Below, one piece after another: positions 178 to 21,093 of a stretch of 30,715 nt of DNA (its first letter is position 1; each line of letters begins with the position of its first letter). The DNA is taken from UHGV virus genome UHGV-0267581; one strand, 5' to 3'. Below the pieces are notes generated by a model that saw nothing but the letters and a program-made list of their open reading frames with translations, was not told the origin of the DNA and made no database searches. The position numbers were made by a program, and so were the translations under genes. This DNA comes from a virus.

Positions 178-251
178 GTTAAATAGGCGAGTAATCTCCT
201 GTTTAGGTTTTCCTAATATCATGTACCCACAATAACAAGAGGGGTACAACA

Positions 252-524
252 ATGAACATCGGTAAAGCAATCATCAACTACGCAGCGCGTCGCAACATGG
301 ACATTACCTTGATTGACGATGAGACCGTGGCGTTCTGGGAAGCGGATAACGATTGTGAATGGATGTTCTCCTACATGATTGGTAATGATGGTTTCCTCCA
401 CTTTAAAGGCAATGTGTATCTGCCGCAGGATATTAAAGAAGAATTACCAGCGTGCATCGATACAGACAAGAAGCTGAAAGAAGTAATCAACTTTATCGCT
501 AAAGAGTTTACCAGCAAGAAGTAA
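252..524 (+). CDS. hypothetical protein (90 aa)
   Basis: ORF with ATG start and an AGAGGGG Shine-Dalgarno-like motif about 9 nt upstream; its stop overlaps the next start (TAATG). No motif recognised. Confidence 0.5.
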   Translation: MNIGKAIINYAARRNMDITLIDDETVAFWEADNDCEWMFSYMIGNDGFLHFKGNVYLPQDIKEELPACIDTDKKLKEVINFIAKEFTSKK

Positions 525-961
525 TGTCTAATTTGGCGGGTACTATTCCCGCCGATTTAAACGGAATACAGACAATGTTCAATATTATGATTCGTAAATT
601 TGGTGAGATGACTTTCGAGAAAGCTGGTGTTGCTCGTACCGAAGAAGAAGCAATGGCCTTAGTTCTGGTAGCACTGAGATCATCTCCTGAGATTATCGAC
701 GCTGAATATGTTGCGGCTGAGGGTGAGATTAAAGAGATTAAAGCGGTGGCTAAGGAATTAGGTGTTAAAGATTTTCGTAAGCTGAGATTGACTCGTGAGA
801 CTTATGTAATTGGACAGCAAGGACAATACCTAGATGAGAATACCGTGATTGTTCTACTGAATAAGATTACCCGCTACGGTTGGAAGATTGAGCAATATAA
901 AACGTGTTTCGAATTATACGAAAAAGGTTTGCTGGATACTCTGACCATCGTTCGCGCTTAA
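524..961 (+). CDS. hypothetical protein (145 aa)
   Basis: ORF translationally coupled to the upstream ORF (TAATG overlap). Its first codons are encoded by hairpin element copy 1. No motif recognised. Confidence 0.5.
   Translation: MSNLAGTIPADLNGIQTMFNIMIRKFGEMTFEKAGVARTEEEAMALVLVALRSSPEIIDAEYVAAEGEIKEIKAVAKELGVKDFRKLRLTRETYVIGQQGQYLDENTVIVLLNKITRYGWKIEQYKTCFELYEKGLLDTLTIVRA
527..562 (+). repeat. conserved hairpin element, copy 1 (TCTAATTTGG / GGCGGG-TACTATT-CCCGCC / GATTTAAAC)
   Basis: 6-bp GC stem with 7-nt loop and conserved flanks, read directly. A second copy at 968-1005 has compensatory stem changes. Confidence 0.6.
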
Positions 962-967
962 TTAATT

Positions 968-1005
968 TCTAATTTGGTGGGTGCAATTCCCACCGCTTTT
1001 TAAAC
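968..1005 (+). repeat. conserved hairpin element, copy 2 (TCTAATTTGG / GGTGGG-TGCAATT-CCCACC / GCTTTTTAAAC)
   Basis: Same flanks and geometry as copy 1; stem differs by paired substitutions (C to T on the left arm, G to A on the right) that preserve pairing. Lies immediately after the stop of ORF 524-961. Confidence 0.6.
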
Positions 1006-1018
1006 TGGAGAATCAAAC

Positions 1019-1099
1019 ATGTTAGCTTTTATCTCATTCGTGGGAGGTAGTCTCACAACTATGATTAGTCTTTCTTATATTGTCGTTAGTATGGGGTGA
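1019..1099 (+). CDS. possible small hydrophobic peptide (26 aa, MLAFISFVGGSLTTMISLSYIVVSMG)
   Basis: Short ORF with GGAGA 7 nt upstream of ATG; hydrophobic composition. Hand-translated; below the size cut-off of the ORF track. Confidence 0.25.
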   Translation: MLAFISFVGGSLTTMISLSYIVVSMG

Positions 1100-1102
1100 G
1101 CA

Positions 1103-1228
1103 ATGAAACAATTTCATGATGGCATTTCATCTAAGACATTCAAGAAAGAATATAGCGGCTTGTGTATTGACTGGATGGATTTGATTGGCGCGGTTGTGTT
1201 TGGTCTGATTATTAGTATTAACTTTTAA
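1103..1228 (+). CDS. possible small membrane peptide (41 aa, C-terminal hydrophobic helix)
   Basis: Short ORF starting 4 nt after the previous peptide's stop; hydrophobic stretch LIGAVVFGLIISI. Weak SD. Hand-translated. Confidence 0.25.
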   Translation: MKQFHDGISSKTFKKEYSGLCIDWMDLIGAVVFGLIISINF

Positions 1229-1273: not shown

Positions 1274-1687
1274 ATGAAAAAGATTATCGCTGGTGTTGTT
1301 CTTGCTCTGGGTTTGGTTGGTGCTGCGAATGCTAATACCTATTATGTGTGTAATTCCTACTTCGAACATAAAGGAGATGATACACAATATCTTCGTGATG
1401 GCGACCGTTATTATCATGCGCCGTCTGGCAAATACCGTGGTTTTATCGGTGTAAAGGTTCGAGTGAATGATGATAATAGTCAATTTGCTTTCAACGATCC
1501 GGTATTTGATAAAACAATCAAAAGCCCAAAACTGAAAGAAGATAAGAACGAGAAAGAAGAATATTATGGTTCCGAAGATGGTAAATCCTACATCAAATAT
1601 CTGCATTCTGTAGATGGCGCGCCTATATTTGATGTTAAAAAAGGTGATACGTCTTATTCCCTGATTAGCTGCCGTGAAATTCTTTAA
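1274..1687 (+). CDS. secreted protein with N-terminal signal peptide (137 aa), function unknown
   Basis: AGAGGAAG SD upstream of ATG; N-terminus MKKIIAGVVLALGLVGAANA has a basic n-region, hydrophobic core and AxA cleavage motif; followed by a terminator. Confidence 0.65.
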   Translation: MKKIIAGVVLALGLVGAANANTYYVCNSYFEHKGDDTQYLRDGDRYYHAPSGKYRGFIGVKVRVNDDNSQFAFNDPVFDKTIKSPKLKEDKNEKEEYYGSEDGKSYIKYLHSVDGAPIFDVKKGDTSYSLISCREIL

Positions 1688-1702
1688 TCTTTAATCACCT
1701 AG

Positions 1703-1740
1703 CCCCTATCGTTATAATACGCGGTAGGGGCGTTTTGTTT
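1703..1740 (+). terminator. rho-independent terminator-like hairpin (imperfect dyad around TTATAATA) plus T-tract
   Basis: CCCCTATCG ... CGGTAGGGG stem with one wobble, followed by CGTTTTGTTT. Also a candidate recombinase site because of its dyad symmetry. Confidence 0.5.
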
Positions 1741-1749
1741 GGAAATGGT

Positions 1750-3429
1750 ATGAAAACTAAACTGTATTCGTATATTCGCTTCTCGTCTATGCGTCAGAAT
1801 GATGGTTCGAGTTATGAACGACAAATCAGGATGGCTAGAGAGATTGCGGTAAAGTATGACCTTGAACTGGTAAATGATTATCAGGATCTGGGTGTATCTG
1901 CGTTTAAGGGTGCTAACTCCAAAACAGGGGCGCTATCTCGTTTCCTTGATGCAATAGGTAGATCCGTTCCTGTTGGTAGCTGGCTATTCATCGAAAACTT
2001 GGACCGTTTATCCCGTGCCGATATTGTCAGTGCGCAGGAGTTATTCCTTTCAATCATCCGTAGGGGGATAACCATTGTTACTGGCATGGATAACAAGATC
2101 TACTCGCTGGATACTGTTACCGCTAACCCGATGGACCTGATGTTCTCCATCCTTTTATTCATCCGTGGTAATGAGGAAAGCCAGACTAAGCGCAATCGTA
2201 CTAACTCAAGCGCACTGATTAAGATTAAAGCTCATCAAGAAAATCCACAAAATCCGGCTGTTGCAATCGAGGAAATTGGAAAGAATATGTGGTGGACTGA
2301 TACCACATCTGGTTATGTGCTTCCTCATCCGGTCTTCTTCCCTATTGTTCAGGAAGTTGTGGAATTACGCAGGAATGGACGGTCAACCGCCGAGATACTG
2401 GATCACCTTAACGCGACATACACACCACCACCAGCCGCAAGTCACAAGAGGCATTCAAACTGGTCACGGGCAATGATTGAAAGGTTGTTCCATACCCGCG
2501 CTTTGATTGGTATCAAGGAAATCTCTGTAGATGGCGTTAAGTATGAGTTAAAGGATTATTATCCTCGTGTGCTAGATGACGCTGAGTTTTATCACCTTAA
2601 GAAAAGCATTGGTGTTAGAGCATGTAACTTTGGAGACAAAGAAGAAGTTAAACCTATTCCCTTGCTTAGTGGTGTTGGTCTATTGAAATGTGAACATTGC
2701 GGTTCCGCTATGGTTAAGGTGAAAGGAACAAACAGACGGCCTAACCAATATCGTTATTCATGCGATGCAATGCGCTCTAGTCGTATTGAATGTGTGCATA
2801 CAAACTGGAGTTTTCGCGGCGACCAATTAGAGAAAGCTGTATTGCAATTGCTGGCTGATAAAATCTGGATTGCTGAAGATAAGGCTAATCCGGTTCCGGC
2901 TTTGAAAGTACAGATTGATGAAATATCACGCAAGATTGATAACCTGATTACCCTTTCTGCTATGACAGGAGCAACGAAGGAGCTAGCCGATCAGATTACT
3001 ACCCTCAATAGCGAGCGTGAAACACTCTACAATCAAATTAAGATGGCAGAAGAGGAAATGTATTCTGTTGACTCTCAAGGCTGGGAGAAGCTCGCAGAAT
3101 TTGATTTAGAAGATGTTTACAACGAGGATCGCATTAAGGTCCGGTTTAAGATTAAGCAAGCTCTAAAACGGATCGGGTGTAGCAGGATTGACAAGTACAA
3201 AAACTTGTTTGTACTGGAATACATCGATGGCAAGACCCAGAGAGTTGTAATAGAAAATTCAAGAGGACCGAGGAAAGGCCGGATCTTCGTTGATTTGAAG
3301 ACTATCAATGATAGGCAGATTCTGGAGAGTAACGGGCTTGTTCTGCATCCATGTTTAGACATGCTGACAGATAAGAACTGGAAACCAGAAGAAGAAATAC
3401 CAGGTCCATTACAAGAATTTGGAATTTAA
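1750..3429 (+). CDS. large serine recombinase (integrase-type; resolvase-like catalytic domain plus zinc ribbon and coiled coil)
   Basis: N-terminal YIRFSSMRQ (catalytic Ser motif) and ENLDRLSRA (resolvase LDRLxR motif); cysteine cluster CEHCG ... YRYSCDA ... ECVH typical of the zinc beta-ribbon of large serine recombinases; heptad-rich C-terminus. ATG at 1750 preferred over the in-frame TTG at 1735. Confidence 0.85.
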   Translation: MKTKLYSYIRFSSMRQNDGSSYERQIRMAREIAVKYDLELVNDYQDLGVSAFKGANSKTGALSRFLDAIGRSVPVGSWLFIENLDRLSRADIVSAQELFLSIIRRGITIVTGMDNKIYSLDTVTANPMDLMFSILLFIRGNEESQTKRNRTNSSALIKIKAHQENPQNPAVAIEEIGKNMWWTDTTSGYVLPHPVFFPIVQEVVELRRNGRSTAEILDHLNATYTPPPAASHKRHSNWSRAMIERLFHTRALIGIKEISVDGVKYELKDYYPRVLDDAEFYHLKKSIGVRACNFGDKEEVKPIPLLSGVGLLKCEHCGSAMVKVKGTNRRPNQYRYSCDAMRSSRIECVHTNWSFRGDQLEKAVLQLLADKIWIAEDKANPVPALKVQIDEISRKIDNLITLSAMTGATKELADQITTLNSERETLYNQIKMAEEEMYSVDSQGWEKLAEFDLEDVYNEDRIKVRFKIKQALKRIGCSRIDKYKNLFVLEYIDGKTQRVVIENSRGPRKGRIFVDLKTINDRQILESNGLVLHPCLDMLTDKNWKPEEEIPGPLQEFGI

Positions 3430-15094: not shown

Positions 15095-15121
15095 AAAAAA
15101 GCCCCACCATTAAGGCAGGGC
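15095..15121 (-). terminator. intrinsic terminator downstream of the tail-protein extension (GCCCUGCC-UUAAU-GGUGGGGC then U6 on the minus strand)
   Basis: 8-bp stem with two G-U wobbles, 5-nt loop, U-tract; near-identical copy at 20930-20955. Confidence 0.6.
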
Positions 15122-15127
15122 TTATAA

Positions 15128-15250
15128 TTAATCTTTAGCCTTGCGGCTTCGTTTAGCTGTGGCTTTCGCCGTAACTTCTTCTACTTCTGGAATCACCACC
15201 GCTTCATGTTCCGGCTGTGGTTCCGGTTCGGGAAGTTCTTCGTTAGTTCA
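15128..15250 (-). other. in-frame recoded extension after a TGA stop (39 codons: TNEELPEPEPQPEHEAVVIPEVEEVTAKATAKRSRKAKD, ending TAA)
   Basis: Hand-translated; same frame as the upstream gene, no internal ATG, UGA-ACU-AAC context and C-terminal VTAKAT...RK.K motif shared with the extension after the capsid gene. Confidence 0.55.
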
Positions 15251-15777: not shown

Positions 15778-18700
15778 TTATTTAGTTGCTTTCAGTTCGG
15801 CAATTTCTTTCTGTAATGCTTCGATCTGGGCTTTATATTTGGCGTCCATTTCCTGCATAGCTTTGATGATTAAAGCATTGACAGCAGAGTTAGAAATAGT
15901 CTTGATTGCTTCTGGATTTTCTGGATCTTCGGTGGATTGAATACCTACTGCTTCCGGCAATACTTCTTCCAGATCCTGAGCAATAATACCTACTTCGCGT
16001 TTAATCACACTACGGTCTTTAAGAGATTTAACTTTATCGTAGGTGTAGACTTTCAGTGAGTTTACTTTCTCTAATGCGCCGTCCTGTAATTCTTCCTTGT
16101 TAATCTTCAAACGGGAGTCAGAGCGAATGTAAACATCGTTAAACGAACCGTTACGACCTGCGGTAAAGTCACCAGCAGCGTTAAAGTCAAAGTTAGTATC
16201 ATGAACATGGAGACGAACAAGAGCGTTACCGATAGTACCGTCAGGAACGTGCACACCCATTGCTGCAATGTGATATTTACCCCAATGCGTCGCTTTCCAT
16301 ACGTTATGTGCCGAGTTGGTGGATTGAGGACACCCAACCATAAGACCAGCAGCACGGTCACGCCAGCTAGCCCAACTACCGCCAGCAACTTCACCACGAA
16401 TCAGGCCATTACCGCCACCGGTTACAGTACCAGATTCCAACTGGATCATTTTATCTGCAAATTTCCACATCTGGGCTTGTTTCTGACCACGGAAGCGAAT
16501 AGCACCAGCATCATCGCAGTACATCAAGCCTAACTCTAAACCGTTCGGATCTCTAAACCAGATGTGCTTATTGCCAGTGCGTTTAAACTCAATATCAGCA
16601 CCGTTGATAGTGATATTACCGCCAGTGTGAATTGCTTGAGGCTTAACAGTACCGTTGATGGCAAACTCAATTGCCGTAGTACCCGGACCGCCCGGACGTT
16701 GGGTATACCAATGCCAACCGCTTTCATCAGCACATTCAAATACTTGTTTACGAGCATCAGCGCCCCATGCACGAATATTGAAACTAGAAGTAGCTGTACC
16801 CTTACCCCAGCGAATCAGACCAGCAGATTCCAAATCACCGAAGAATTTAGTTTTAATCGCACCAGTTGCTAAAGTACGTTCAGTGGTGAAGTGAGCACCT
16901 TTACTATCTTCAAGCTGTATAACGTTATCACGAGCGTTATTGCTATCGCCCCAATGACTCAAACGGAAATAGTCGCGGGATTGTCCAGCACCAGCATCAA
17001 ATGTTAAATATTGGCCTTTAATGTATGTGTTTCCAGCAAAACGAGCAGCACGACTTGCACGTTCTAAGACTAATGCACCTTCGTTACCATCACCACCCAA
17101 AGTAACATTACCGCTACCCAGATTGTAAATGAATGGACGATAGCCGTTCCAACCACCAAATTTATCATTTTCGGCAGTAGACAGAAGATATACGTTTTGA
17201 CCATCATTACGCCAGAATGCACCATAGTTACCGTAAATCATACGGAATGCATCACTGTTAGCAGCTACATATTGACCATTGGTGTATACAATTTTGGTAG
17301 CACCTGTGCTTAAAGATACTTGACCACTTGCTTCTAATTTAACAAAGTTTTTACCTTCGTCACTATACCATTGAAAATCGTTAGTATCTGTAGAACCAAA
17401 ACCAAACCAGCCTTGACGTTTATTAGCCCCGTCTCGCTGATCCATATATTCAAAATAGTTACTACGACCAGTAGGACGCCACATACGAATCGCGTTATTG
17501 CCTTGCAGATGAAGTCTATCGACAAATAAACCATCACTACCAACAATTTTTAATACTTCTTTTTGGTCGGTGGAACCAGTAGCCAAACGATACACATCAC
17601 CTTGAACAGTTTCATGCCATATTGTTTCCGCCGCACGACTGCGGAATTTACGCATATATTTTTTATTGTTGTCTGGTACGTTATTAAGGCTCACAATATC
17701 ATAGGTTGCTTGTGAGTTATTATCAAACATCAACGTTCCGGCTTTGTTTTCGGTGTTGAACATCGTAATAACACGAGCATCGGTAACACCAACAGAAGGT
17801 TTAACGAGAGTTAATTCAGGAACATCATGTACTGTCAGAGTAACGCCATCAGTTTTACCGTATTCGACAATAACGTTATCGGTGTAACGACCGTAGTTAA
17901 CGTAGATATCGTAGTTATCACCGGAAGTATTAACCGCAAATACTTGATGAACGTTCAGAGCATTTCGACGATAAGCAGCAATACTAACGCCTTTCGGGTT
18001 ATTGTTACCGGAACGGATGACAATTTCTACAAAGTCAACCTGATCATAAGAGTTAACGTTATAACCATTACCACCGAAGATACGAAGCATTACCATTCGA
18101 CCATTCTGTGGGATCGTAGCGGTTGCGATCTTGAAGTATCCACGAGTAGCATCACCAGAAGGAACGGTCATTCTAACGTTCTTGATGAACATCTGATCAA
18201 CTTCGGCTTTACTATACACACCCAATTCAGTCGGAGTCGGCTTATCACCTTCGTGATACATGCGGTAGCTGAATCGCTTATTACCATCTTTATCAAAGCC
18301 ATAGGTTTTAACTTGAGATGAGCTAGACCCATAGTGGAACTCAAAACCGCGACCGTGTGCTTTACCGCCAGAATGAGGAATGTTAAGGATTAAGTTACCC
18401 CAACCTTCGGCATTGTTTGGACGGAATGCACCAAAATAATCAAGGTTACGAGCACCAGCATCATCAAAATAGTTAGCTGTTTTGGTTAACAGATAGCCGT
18501 GATGGTAAGTGTTGGTATTCTTCTTGATGTAAGCAGCATCGGCACTACCTTCAATAGAATCAATTCGCTGGTTAGCTGCGGCAATTGCGGCATCAGTAGA
18601 AGATTTATTCTGGTCTACCTTGTTGTTAATTGCTGTATGGTTGCTATTAACTGTCCCCGTAAGATTGGTGATCTTCGTGTCGGCATCGCGTTTATTATTT

Positions 18701-20929: not shown

Positions 20930-20955
20930 AAAAAAGCCCCACCGTTAGGCAGGGC
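20930..20955 (-). terminator. intrinsic terminator downstream of the capsid extension (GCCCUGCC-UAAC-GGUGGGGC then U6)
   Basis: Near-identical to the hairpin at 15095-15121, including both G-U wobbles. Confidence 0.6.
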
Positions 20956-20961
20956 TAATTA

Positions 20962-21093
20962 TTATTCTTTAGTTTTACGTTGTTTTTTAACTGTGGCTTT
21001 CGCCGTAACCGTCTGAGATTCTTCTTCCTGAGATGGAATCAGATTTTCTTCCCCCAAATCGGGGGAAGGTTCAGATGGTTCTACGTTAGTTCA
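20962..21093 (-). other. in-frame recoded extension after a TGA stop (42 codons: TNVEPSEPSPDLGEENLIPSQEEESQTVTAKATVKKQRKTKE, ending TAA)
   Basis: Hand-translated; same frame as the capsid gene, no ATG, conserved UGA-ACU-AAC context and VTAKAT basic tail shared with the 15128-15250 extension. Confidence 0.55.

Follow-up and report, generated by a model that had tools for sequence, protein, structure and literature searches.

What does a short hairpin do when it stands twice, in the same orientation, on either side of a small gene near one end of a viral DNA? The stretch concerned, UHGV virus genome UHGV-0267581 (30,715 nucleotides, the whole of which is called the window below), has two such copies, at 527-562 and 968-1005, here named h1 and h2. 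A sequence-only reading had drawn attention to them, with sequences and coordinates that are right apart from a slip in which the GG of 'TTTGG' was counted twice in its hyphenated strings (the 6-bp stem uses those Gs), and among the roles it offered were an RNA operator for a translational repressor and a recombination or mobility boundary. The answer arrived at here is that the element is probably a module placed between cistrons, an RNA hairpin of the factor-independent terminator or attenuator type, which also marks mosaic joints in the accessory region of an Escherichia coli prophage.

Anatomy and intergenic position of h1 and h2

Both copies belong to a direct repeat whose limits, as given by a repeat finder, are 519-558 and 960-999 (83% identity), each with the upstream gene's stop codon at its beginning. 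The hairpins follow these stop codons by at most about 10-15 nt and are 5' of a ribosome-binding site (RBS), and an AT-rich leader, TCTAATTT, is common to the two. In both the stem is 6 bp and the loop 7 nt; as RNA the stems reach 7-8 pairs by means of a U.G pair at the flank, to which h1 adds a U-A pair (8 pairs in h1, 7 in h2). The one compensatory difference between the stems, C:G in h1 and U:A in h2, is at stem pair 3 and is as real as had been claimed. All neighbouring genes are on the + strand, so the GC-rich stem-loops lie on the transcribed strand, and there each folds as a simple hairpin (-15.5 kcal/mol, z = -5.1 for h1; -11.4 kcal/mol, z = -2.9 for h2).

A terminator scan flagged h2 (7 pairs, 5 GC, tail CTTTTT) and not h1. 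The tract 3' of the h2 stem is CUUUUU (U5), as against an h1 tail, GAUUUAAAC, that has only three U, and the loop of h2, U-GCAA-UU or U-GUAA-UU, is a GNRA tetraloop, which the UACUAUU of h1 is not. A degenerate 28-nt pattern searched with up to three mismatches has exactly two sites in the window, compared with none in 100 shuffles; there is no third copy in its 30.7 kb, nor any in host genomes outside this prophage. Rfam 15 yielded no family match, only scores at chance level (CbSR14, 20 bits with a cut-off of 172; L2 leader, 15.7 with a cut-off of 37.8), and a sigma-70 scan gave no promoter-like match at 519-575 or 960-1021.

Where the gene between the hairpins, gene B, begins is pertinent to what h1 can be. 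The open reading frame (ORF) at 524-961, which opens with the ATG within a TAATG overlap, exists mechanically, and on its account copy 1 had been described as overlapping codons 2-13 of the gene. That description does not survive comparison with relatives, in which the first 17 codons are not conserved as coding sequence. In PEC41 and L3Cip3 the ~38 nt bearing h1 are absent as a clean indel, and the Prokaryotic Genome Annotation Pipeline (PGAP) gives gene B as 387 nt with its start at the ATG equivalent to window 575; L014, L124, L125 and L127 carry h1 but with TAATT replacing TAATG, and so have no ATG at 524; and in L126 a 1-nt deletion between h1 and 575 would break the longer frame. The short gene is also what PGAP calls in E275a, 14EC017 and HCP5S3_I4. 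Because the 524 start is lost, frameshifted or without h1 in relatives, gene B is taken on comparative grounds to be 575-961, starting at ATG 575 and not at 524, with h1 and h2 both intergenic, and the link of copy 1 to coding sequence is an annotation artefact. The correction leaves a conserved gene of 128 aa, with an intergenic hairpin in what had been read as 17 further codons.

Homologues of gene B in a collection of 5.8 billion proteins are of 145-aa and 128-aa classes, all from Escherichia or Shigella, and the match to PHROG 14908 spans only residues 69-142 of the product. The 145-aa protein, started at the TAATG overlap, is the PGAP product in many RefSeq genomes (e.g. L001, L123 and L128). 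Some records carry the name 'beta/alpha barrel domain-containing protein' or 'type I 3-dehydroquinate dehydratase', neither of which is backed by a Pfam, NCBIfam or PHROG function. The most distant homologue, P0048, was set aside as uninformative, its scaffold being chimeric with Ns.

Conservation, covariation and mosaic joints

Among 5,426 complete E. coli genomes h2 is present in 57, one copy each and in this prophage only, and h1 in 19, about one-third of the family; where h1 is present, gene B happens to be bracketed by two copies. The stem of h2, GGTGGG/CCCACC, is the same in every locus read (~40, including 26 IMG/VR proviruses), and the variation is at loop position 3 (C or T, the free N), at loop position 7 (one strain) and in a 1-nt tail indel. 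The stem of h1 has changed three times independently, to GACGGG (EC416), GGCTGG (L005/L123) and CCCGCA (L014/L127), in each case with weakening and without compensation. Stem versus non-stem changes number 3 vs 1 for h1 and 0 vs ~4 for h2, a contrast that is suggestive only (Fisher estimate ~0.07).

Searching cultured phages with the 64-nt module by blastn gave only matches of E >= 0.1; the homologues of the upstream gene, A, in the Drexlerviridae phages LL5 and JohannLBurckhardt have no such hairpin after them; and scans of GTDB for other species, by exact pattern and then with the integrase protein, found nothing. A metagenome scan with gene D added only two loci, both of the type with h2 directly after a divergent gene A that is described below, and an IMG/VR scan with the integrase returned essentially the same contigs as before.

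For covariation, nine distinct natural variants were aligned and scored against the 6-bp helix. Paired cells make up 94.4% of the helix, the three unpaired ones all being in h1 lineages, and two of the six pairs have changed on both sides: pair 3 is C:G or U:A (U.G in a hybrid copy of L007 and L121), and pair 1 is G:C or A:U (the latter in h3, the copy of STEC1575). The covariation score of 0.241, compared with 0.130 for shuffled alignments, was reached by none of 500 shuffles, and with slid partners it is ~0-0.1. The wobble pair of the hybrid keeps pairing on the + strand only, which fits a sense RNA. Selection on secondary structure, as the sequence-only reading had it, is in this respect borne out, with the proviso that the independent compensatory events within E. 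coli are two, not many.

Equivalents with other stems are found at more distant joints, reached by way of homologues (67-73% identical) of a further gene, B2, of some relatives. After its B2 homologue, a prophage of Salmonella Manhattan in the same chromosomal neighbourhood has TGGCGGGT-(11-nt loop)-ACCCGCCA-CTTTTTTAAACTAATGGAGTATCAAATG, with a U6 tract, and the corresponding joint of a metagenomic phage contig is GGGGGTG-ACAATAA-CACCCGC-ATTTATAAAACGGAGAATCAAAATG, in which GGGTG pairs with CACCC. Kept at these joints are the hairpin, a T/A-rich tail with AAAC, and GGAG..ATCAAA..ATG (...TTTAAAC..GGAG.ATCAAA.ATG); stem sequence and loop are not conserved. Since the hairpin is kept while stem sequence and loop differ, selection would appear to be on pairing, which argues against loop-specific protein recognition, and the comparative evidence supports the stems being under such selection. 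Compensatory stem changes are the expected evolution of intrinsic terminators. As they are to be expected of any terminator or stabiliser hairpin, they do not point to an unusual function.

What lies on either side of the module is far less constant than the module. In the window and 18 other complete genomes the order is A-h1-B-h2-C, where C is a small ORF. PEC41, L008 and others have A-B-h2-C, with a 12-nt spacer and no h1, and L3Cip3 and L019 have att-B-h2-C, without gene A and with the ATG of B exactly at A's place. Gene B is missing from a group with a divergent A allele, A'-h2-C (12 complete genomes plus IMG/VR and metagenome loci), and that allele is also seen in A'-B-h2-C (L122) and A'-B-B2-h2-C'' (L166-L168). 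In L007 and L121 (B-hybrid-C') the hairpin is GGTGGG-TGTAATT-CCCGCC, and sequence diverges immediately 3' of its 3' arm; in STEC1575 (A-B2-h3-C') h3 is AGCGGG-TGCAATT-CCCGCT, with leader and tail unrelated.

When five of these orders are aligned, the h2 module is a ~60-nt island of near-identity, from TAATT... to ATG, between upstream genes (A', B, B2) that cannot be aligned and small downstream ORFs (C, C', C'') that are divergent. Where ORF C has been swapped for C' or C'', the breakpoint is the 3' edge of the hairpin module, and among relatives the breakpoints of gene gain, loss and replacement fall at or beside the hairpins. Because the module is conserved while the genes either side of it are swapped, it also marks mosaic joints of the accessory region. 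The 'boundary' that had been proposed is thus one in the evolutionary sense; as an integrase site it fails, since likeness to attP or attB is not beyond chance.

Table 1. Features of the left part of the window (positions are those of the window)
Feature	Position	Strand	Description
attL junction	201-222	+	host hicB up to 208, crossover TT 209-210, phage DNA from 211
Gene A	252-524	+	90 aa, phrog_6147, function unknown; stop TAA 522-524 runs into h1
h1 module (copy 1)	519-574	+	gene A stop TAA 522-524, leader, stem-loop, tail, weak gene B RBS region 563-574
h1 leader	527-534	+	TCTAATTT
h1 5' arm	535-540	+	GGCGGG
h1 loop	541-547	+	TACTATT
h1 3' arm	548-553	+	CCCGCC
h1 tail	554-562	+	GATTTAAAC
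Gene B	575-961	+	128 aa, function unknown; bracketed by h1 and h2
h2 module (copy 2)	960-1021	+	three-frame stops (TAATTAATTTCTAA), leader, stem-loop, tail, Shine-Dalgarno (SD) sequence, ATG of ORF C
h2 leader	968-975	+	TCTAATTT
h2 5' arm	976-981	+	GGTGGG
h2 loop	982-988	+	TGCAATT
h2 3' arm	989-994	+	CCCACC
h2 tail	995-1005	+	GCTTTTTAAAC
SD after h2	1007-1010	+	GGAG
Start of ORF C	1019-1021	+	ATG
ORF C	1019-1099	+	small hydrophobic ORF, 26 aa; 3' of h2
ORF D	1103-1228	+	small hydrophobic ORF, 41 aa, one predicted transmembrane segment
Gene E	1274-1687	+	last operon gene before terminator
Strong terminator hairpin	1702-1731	+	11-bp stem + T-run; closes accessory operon just 5' of integrase gene
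Large serine integrase gene	1750-3429	+	3' of operon terminator

A probable terminator-type linker and the alternatives to it

The layout of the module, with stops in an AT-rich leader, a GC stem of 6-8 bp, a T/A-rich tail, and the SD and start codon belonging to the small gene that follows, suggests a linker that would act on the sense transcript of the operon A-B-C-D-E. The copy probably at work is h2, given its invariant stem, its U-GNRA-UU loop and its U5 tract, and it may partly terminate transcription and/or give upstream messages a stable 3' end; such activity would limit expression of the small hydrophobic peptides encoded downstream. The other copy, h1, would be a diverged, dispensable and decaying one, most likely the leftover of a cassette-joining event. 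Recombination within the module is likewise something we infer: it may offer ordinary recombination a short stretch of homology, a role proposed for the elements called PeSLs (promoter-early stem-loops) and for 'boundary sequences', to both of which we return.

The likeness of h2 to intrinsic terminators consists in the GC-rich stem, a stable GNRA-type loop, the U5 tract, the sense orientation and the position just after a stop codon. A relaxed scan of IMG/VR found GGNGGG-U-GNRA-UU-CCCNCC hairpins to be common in unrelated phage contigs (loci L031-L116), with the N..N pair covarying, with U-GNRA-UU loops in 19 of ~25 contexts other than tRNA, and usually with a stop codon preceding them and a T-run and RBS following; the tail of one such family, TATTTTTAAACTG, is closely like that of h2. 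As these hairpins recur in phage contigs unrelated to this one, h2 looks like a standard phage intergenic terminator hairpin. The relaxed pattern also picks up tRNA T-arms, and mimicry of a tRNA T-arm or T-loop was considered and rejected: for the loop of h2, U-GNRA-UU is the better description, and h1 answers to neither. A lambda-type nut/boxB site was rejected as well, there being no boxA, both copies being in one operon, and a U-tract following the stem.

Several points weigh against this interpretation. Termination or stabilisation is deduced from form, and the form is not complete in every copy: neither h1 (whose tail is given above) nor h3 (tail UACCCAA) has a U-tract, so that what all versions share is the hairpin only and not a complete terminator. 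Unlike a usual intrinsic terminator, the element is inside an operon whose downstream genes need expression; C, D and E follow it with RBSs of their own, and termination at h2 would therefore be only partial. Conservation of the module could come from selection on the downstream RBS and leader and not on the hairpin. As to joining of cassettes, the loci include no simple h1 x h2 deletion product, in which the A allele of the window would be followed directly by h2, since every A-h2-C locus has the divergent A' allele; and in the A' lineage the breakpoints of gene B gain or loss are at TAA microhomology, with h1 not needed.

A more ambitious version of events, which we regard as unlikely, is that temperate enterobacterial phages have a PeSL-like system of their own, with the terminator-RBS linker as substrate of cassette exchange (the cassettes being A, B, B2, the C variants and, in Salmonella, an OmpW-like gene), with B excised as an h1 x h2 circle, and with the operon driven by a junction promoter present only in circular attP DNA, so that expression of these genes would be confined to entry and to the time following excision. 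PeSLs themselves are known from T4-type phages (RB49/phi1-type; Arbiol et al. 2010, PMC2839356; Comeau et al. 2014, PMC4122927), and have a stop in an AT-rich leader, a stem-loop of G-run and C-run acting as terminator or attenuator, and the SD and start of a small gene (PMC2839356). The modules here resemble them in being short repeated intergenic cassettes of the same layout before small genes of function unknown, and in standing at boundaries of insertion, deletion and replacement between close relatives. However, the sigma-70 promoter that defines PeSLs was not found in this module, the copies per genome are 1-2 as against ~50, the setting is a temperate prophage and not a T4-like myovirus, and it is for PeSLs that copies clustered in hyperplastic regions and mini-circles formed by copy-copy recombination are described.

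One proposal for the mosaicism of lambdoid and other phages, summarised by Pope et al. (2011, PMC3029335), is that short conserved 'boundary sequences' mediate it, and a ~60-nt patch of near-identity between non-homologous gene modules is similar to these; the difference is that the patch here is a structured RNA with covariation, so its conservation need not stem from recombination. Morons, which prophages acquire as added units of promoter, gene and terminator (Cumby et al. 2012, PMC3594210), are also relevant, as gene B is an accessory gene present or absent in close relatives, near the prophage end and with a terminator-like hairpin after it, but no promoter of its own was detected and its GC content is not deviant (0.41 compared with 0.42 for the rest of the phage). 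In the Salmonella Manhattan prophage (L162:3358-4347) the slot after the hairpin module is taken by a gene for a 329-aa OmpW/Ail-like outer-membrane protein, behind which come a GC hairpin of that gene's own (GGCGGGG-TAACT-CCCCGCC) and TTGCAA-17-TATTAT, a promoter-like sequence; the same joint is here occupied by a more classical moron.

Could the module be an element of translational control instead, close to the RNA operator first suggested? In such a scheme the CU-rich leader UUUCUA pairs with the downstream SD UGGAGA across the hairpin, and C and D would be translated only when a terminating ribosome melts the clamp or a protein binds the loop. Minimum free energy and centroid folds do pair UUUCUA with UGGAGA around h2, both in the window (966-1012) and in L166, a UUCC/GGAG pairing is found around the Salmonella hairpin (L162:3288-3352), and the loops of h2 and h3 are identical (UGCAAUU) in spite of unrelated flanks. 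We nonetheless consider it improbable: the outer helix is short, rich in G.U and weak in z-score (-1.2 to -2.1), and it is not predicted for h1, h3 or the metagenomic relative L164; the loop is conserved in neither Salmonella nor L164; and A, B, D and E match no known RNA-binding family. Dispensability of h1 and decay of its stem count in the same direction, and they bear also on the RNA operator for a translational repressor originally suggested, which the many gene B relatives without h1, the uncompensated mismatches and the lack of loop conservation across genera speak against. The leader-SD pairing could couple translation of the small ORF to the upstream gene.

At the other extreme the repeats might have no function, being hitchhiking remnants or scars of illegitimate recombination, with the compensatory change a coincidence of ancestry. 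The restriction of h1 to 19 of the 57 family members with complete genomes, its three uncompensated stem mutations and the mere two compensatory events within E. coli would suit such an origin. Yet the h2 stem is invariant at all loci examined while loop and tail vary, hairpins with different stems are at the equivalent joint in Salmonella and in the metagenomic phage, and covariation exceeds that of shuffled and slid controls, on which account we assign this explanation only a small probability.

Smaller still is the chance that hairpin and promoter overlap, making each module a true PeSL-type composite that stops transcription and then restarts it. The layout of stop, AT-rich leader, GC stem-loop, SD and start fits the published PeSL description (PMC2839356), there is a likeness to a -10 hexamer in the loops TACTAT, TGCAAT and TGTAAT, and the pre-int terminator (Table 1) has a perfect TATAAT in its loop; but the sigma-70 scan was empty at both modules, position 2 of the hexamer in the h2 loop is not the key A, the best -35 candidates match at 2-3 of 6, and a start site in the 3' arm would leave merely ~15-20 nt before the SD.

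Largely refuted is the notion of a DNA-level site (one for the serine integrase, an IS200/IS605 or REP/RAYT hairpin end, or something like an integron attC) with gene B as a mobile cassette, which would account for a gene between same-orientation hairpin repeats being present or absent among relatives, but likeness of h1 and h2 to reconstructed attP and attB is no better than shuffled (their best local alignments are matched by 0.32-0.62 of shuffles), no Y1/HUH transposase or IntI integrase is encoded in cassette or operon (there was no Y1_Tnp or integron-integrase match for A, B, E or the integrase), gene B occurs also without h1, its A'-lineage breakpoints are at TAA and outside the hairpin, and the copies are 1-2 per genome, all in this prophage. 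Sites of large serine recombinases are about 40-50 bp long, with an imperfect dyad around a central dinucleotide; the reconstructed attP (...GTTATTTGGGGTTGACTACATTCGGG-TT-TCCTAATATCATGTACCCACAATAAC...) shows such a dyad, and that the integrase acts on the hairpin element is not supported.

The surrounding prophage and the wider meaning

The region of the window is matched in 62 of 5,426 complete E. coli chromosomes and in no plasmids, and the sole match to the window in cultured phages is a tail-fibre gene. In EC416 the region is a 36-kb prophage splitting hicB, and ycdX is the insertion site of other family members. The window corresponds to the left end of a prophage of E. coli, the integration of which into hicB was the work of a large serine integrase; the reconstruction of attP and attB used attL (window 201-252), attR (L117:36150-36215) and the intact hicB of K-12. 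From the left end of the prophage the hairpin region is ~300-800 bp inward, in the + strand accessory operon A-B-C-D-E between attL and the integrase gene. Pfam, PHROGs, PADLOC and NCBIfam gave no useful function for genes A, B, D, E and B2. An AlphaFold model of the gene B protein, built on a shallow alignment, is unusable (pLDDT 38), and the protein contains no histidine.

The small ORF after the hairpin has at least three very different alleles, C (MLAFISFVGGSLTTMISLSYIVVSMG), C' (MKLLELLILSIF...VYIVVIV; L121:1549-1626) and C'' (MNLLISFVCSVFLAILSSVYIVVVAVG; L166:3328-3411), which are uncalled in most annotations, and which are all hydrophobic, ~25 aa, and with ...YIVV... as common C-terminus; the C variants and D look like small membrane peptides.

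The terminator closing the operon has a perfect TATAAT as its loop (GCCCCTATCGT-TATAAT-ACGCGGTAGGGGC), kept in the E. coli relatives L129 and L166 and not in the Salmonella relative, and its -35 candidate is weak (TTAATC, with a 16-nt spacer); it may be a terminator-plus-promoter composite in PeSL style. At the other end of the operon, the reconstructed attP contains a sigma-70-like promoter, TTGACT-17 nt-TATCAT (10/12), with the crossover TT within the spacer. Integration leaves the -10 hexamer TATCAT (217-222) 5' of gene A and moves the -35 to the far end of the prophage, so that in attL the -35 position is now ATCTCC (2/6) and the motif is complete only in the reconstructed attP. L164, which is un-integrated, has TTGACT-17-TATAGT at the same place (1083-1111). 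Because the complete promoter motif is only in attP, the A-E operon may be transcribed only from circular phage DNA, and there is here a likeness to the junction promoters of insertion sequence (IS) circles, in that the promoter-like motif is complete only in the reconstructed attP.

Elsewhere in the window an 80-nt repeat (76% identical; 15096-15175 and 20930-21009) carries, where two genes of the minus strand have their 3' ends, a terminator-like hairpin (AAAAAGCCCCACC...GGCAGGGCTT). The gene for the tail fibre (15874-18483) has ~80% DNA identity to gp37 of RB49-like Krischvirus phages, to which the prophage is otherwise unrelated.

A structured intergenic module that stays intact while the genes on both its sides are swapped makes a clean small example of a pattern known for T4-like PeSLs, here in a temperate prophage and without the promoter half. 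Should the module be merely a terminator, the finding is an ordinary one. Should it be a substrate for recombination, it would extend the idea of mobile regulatory cassettes beyond the T4-like phages.

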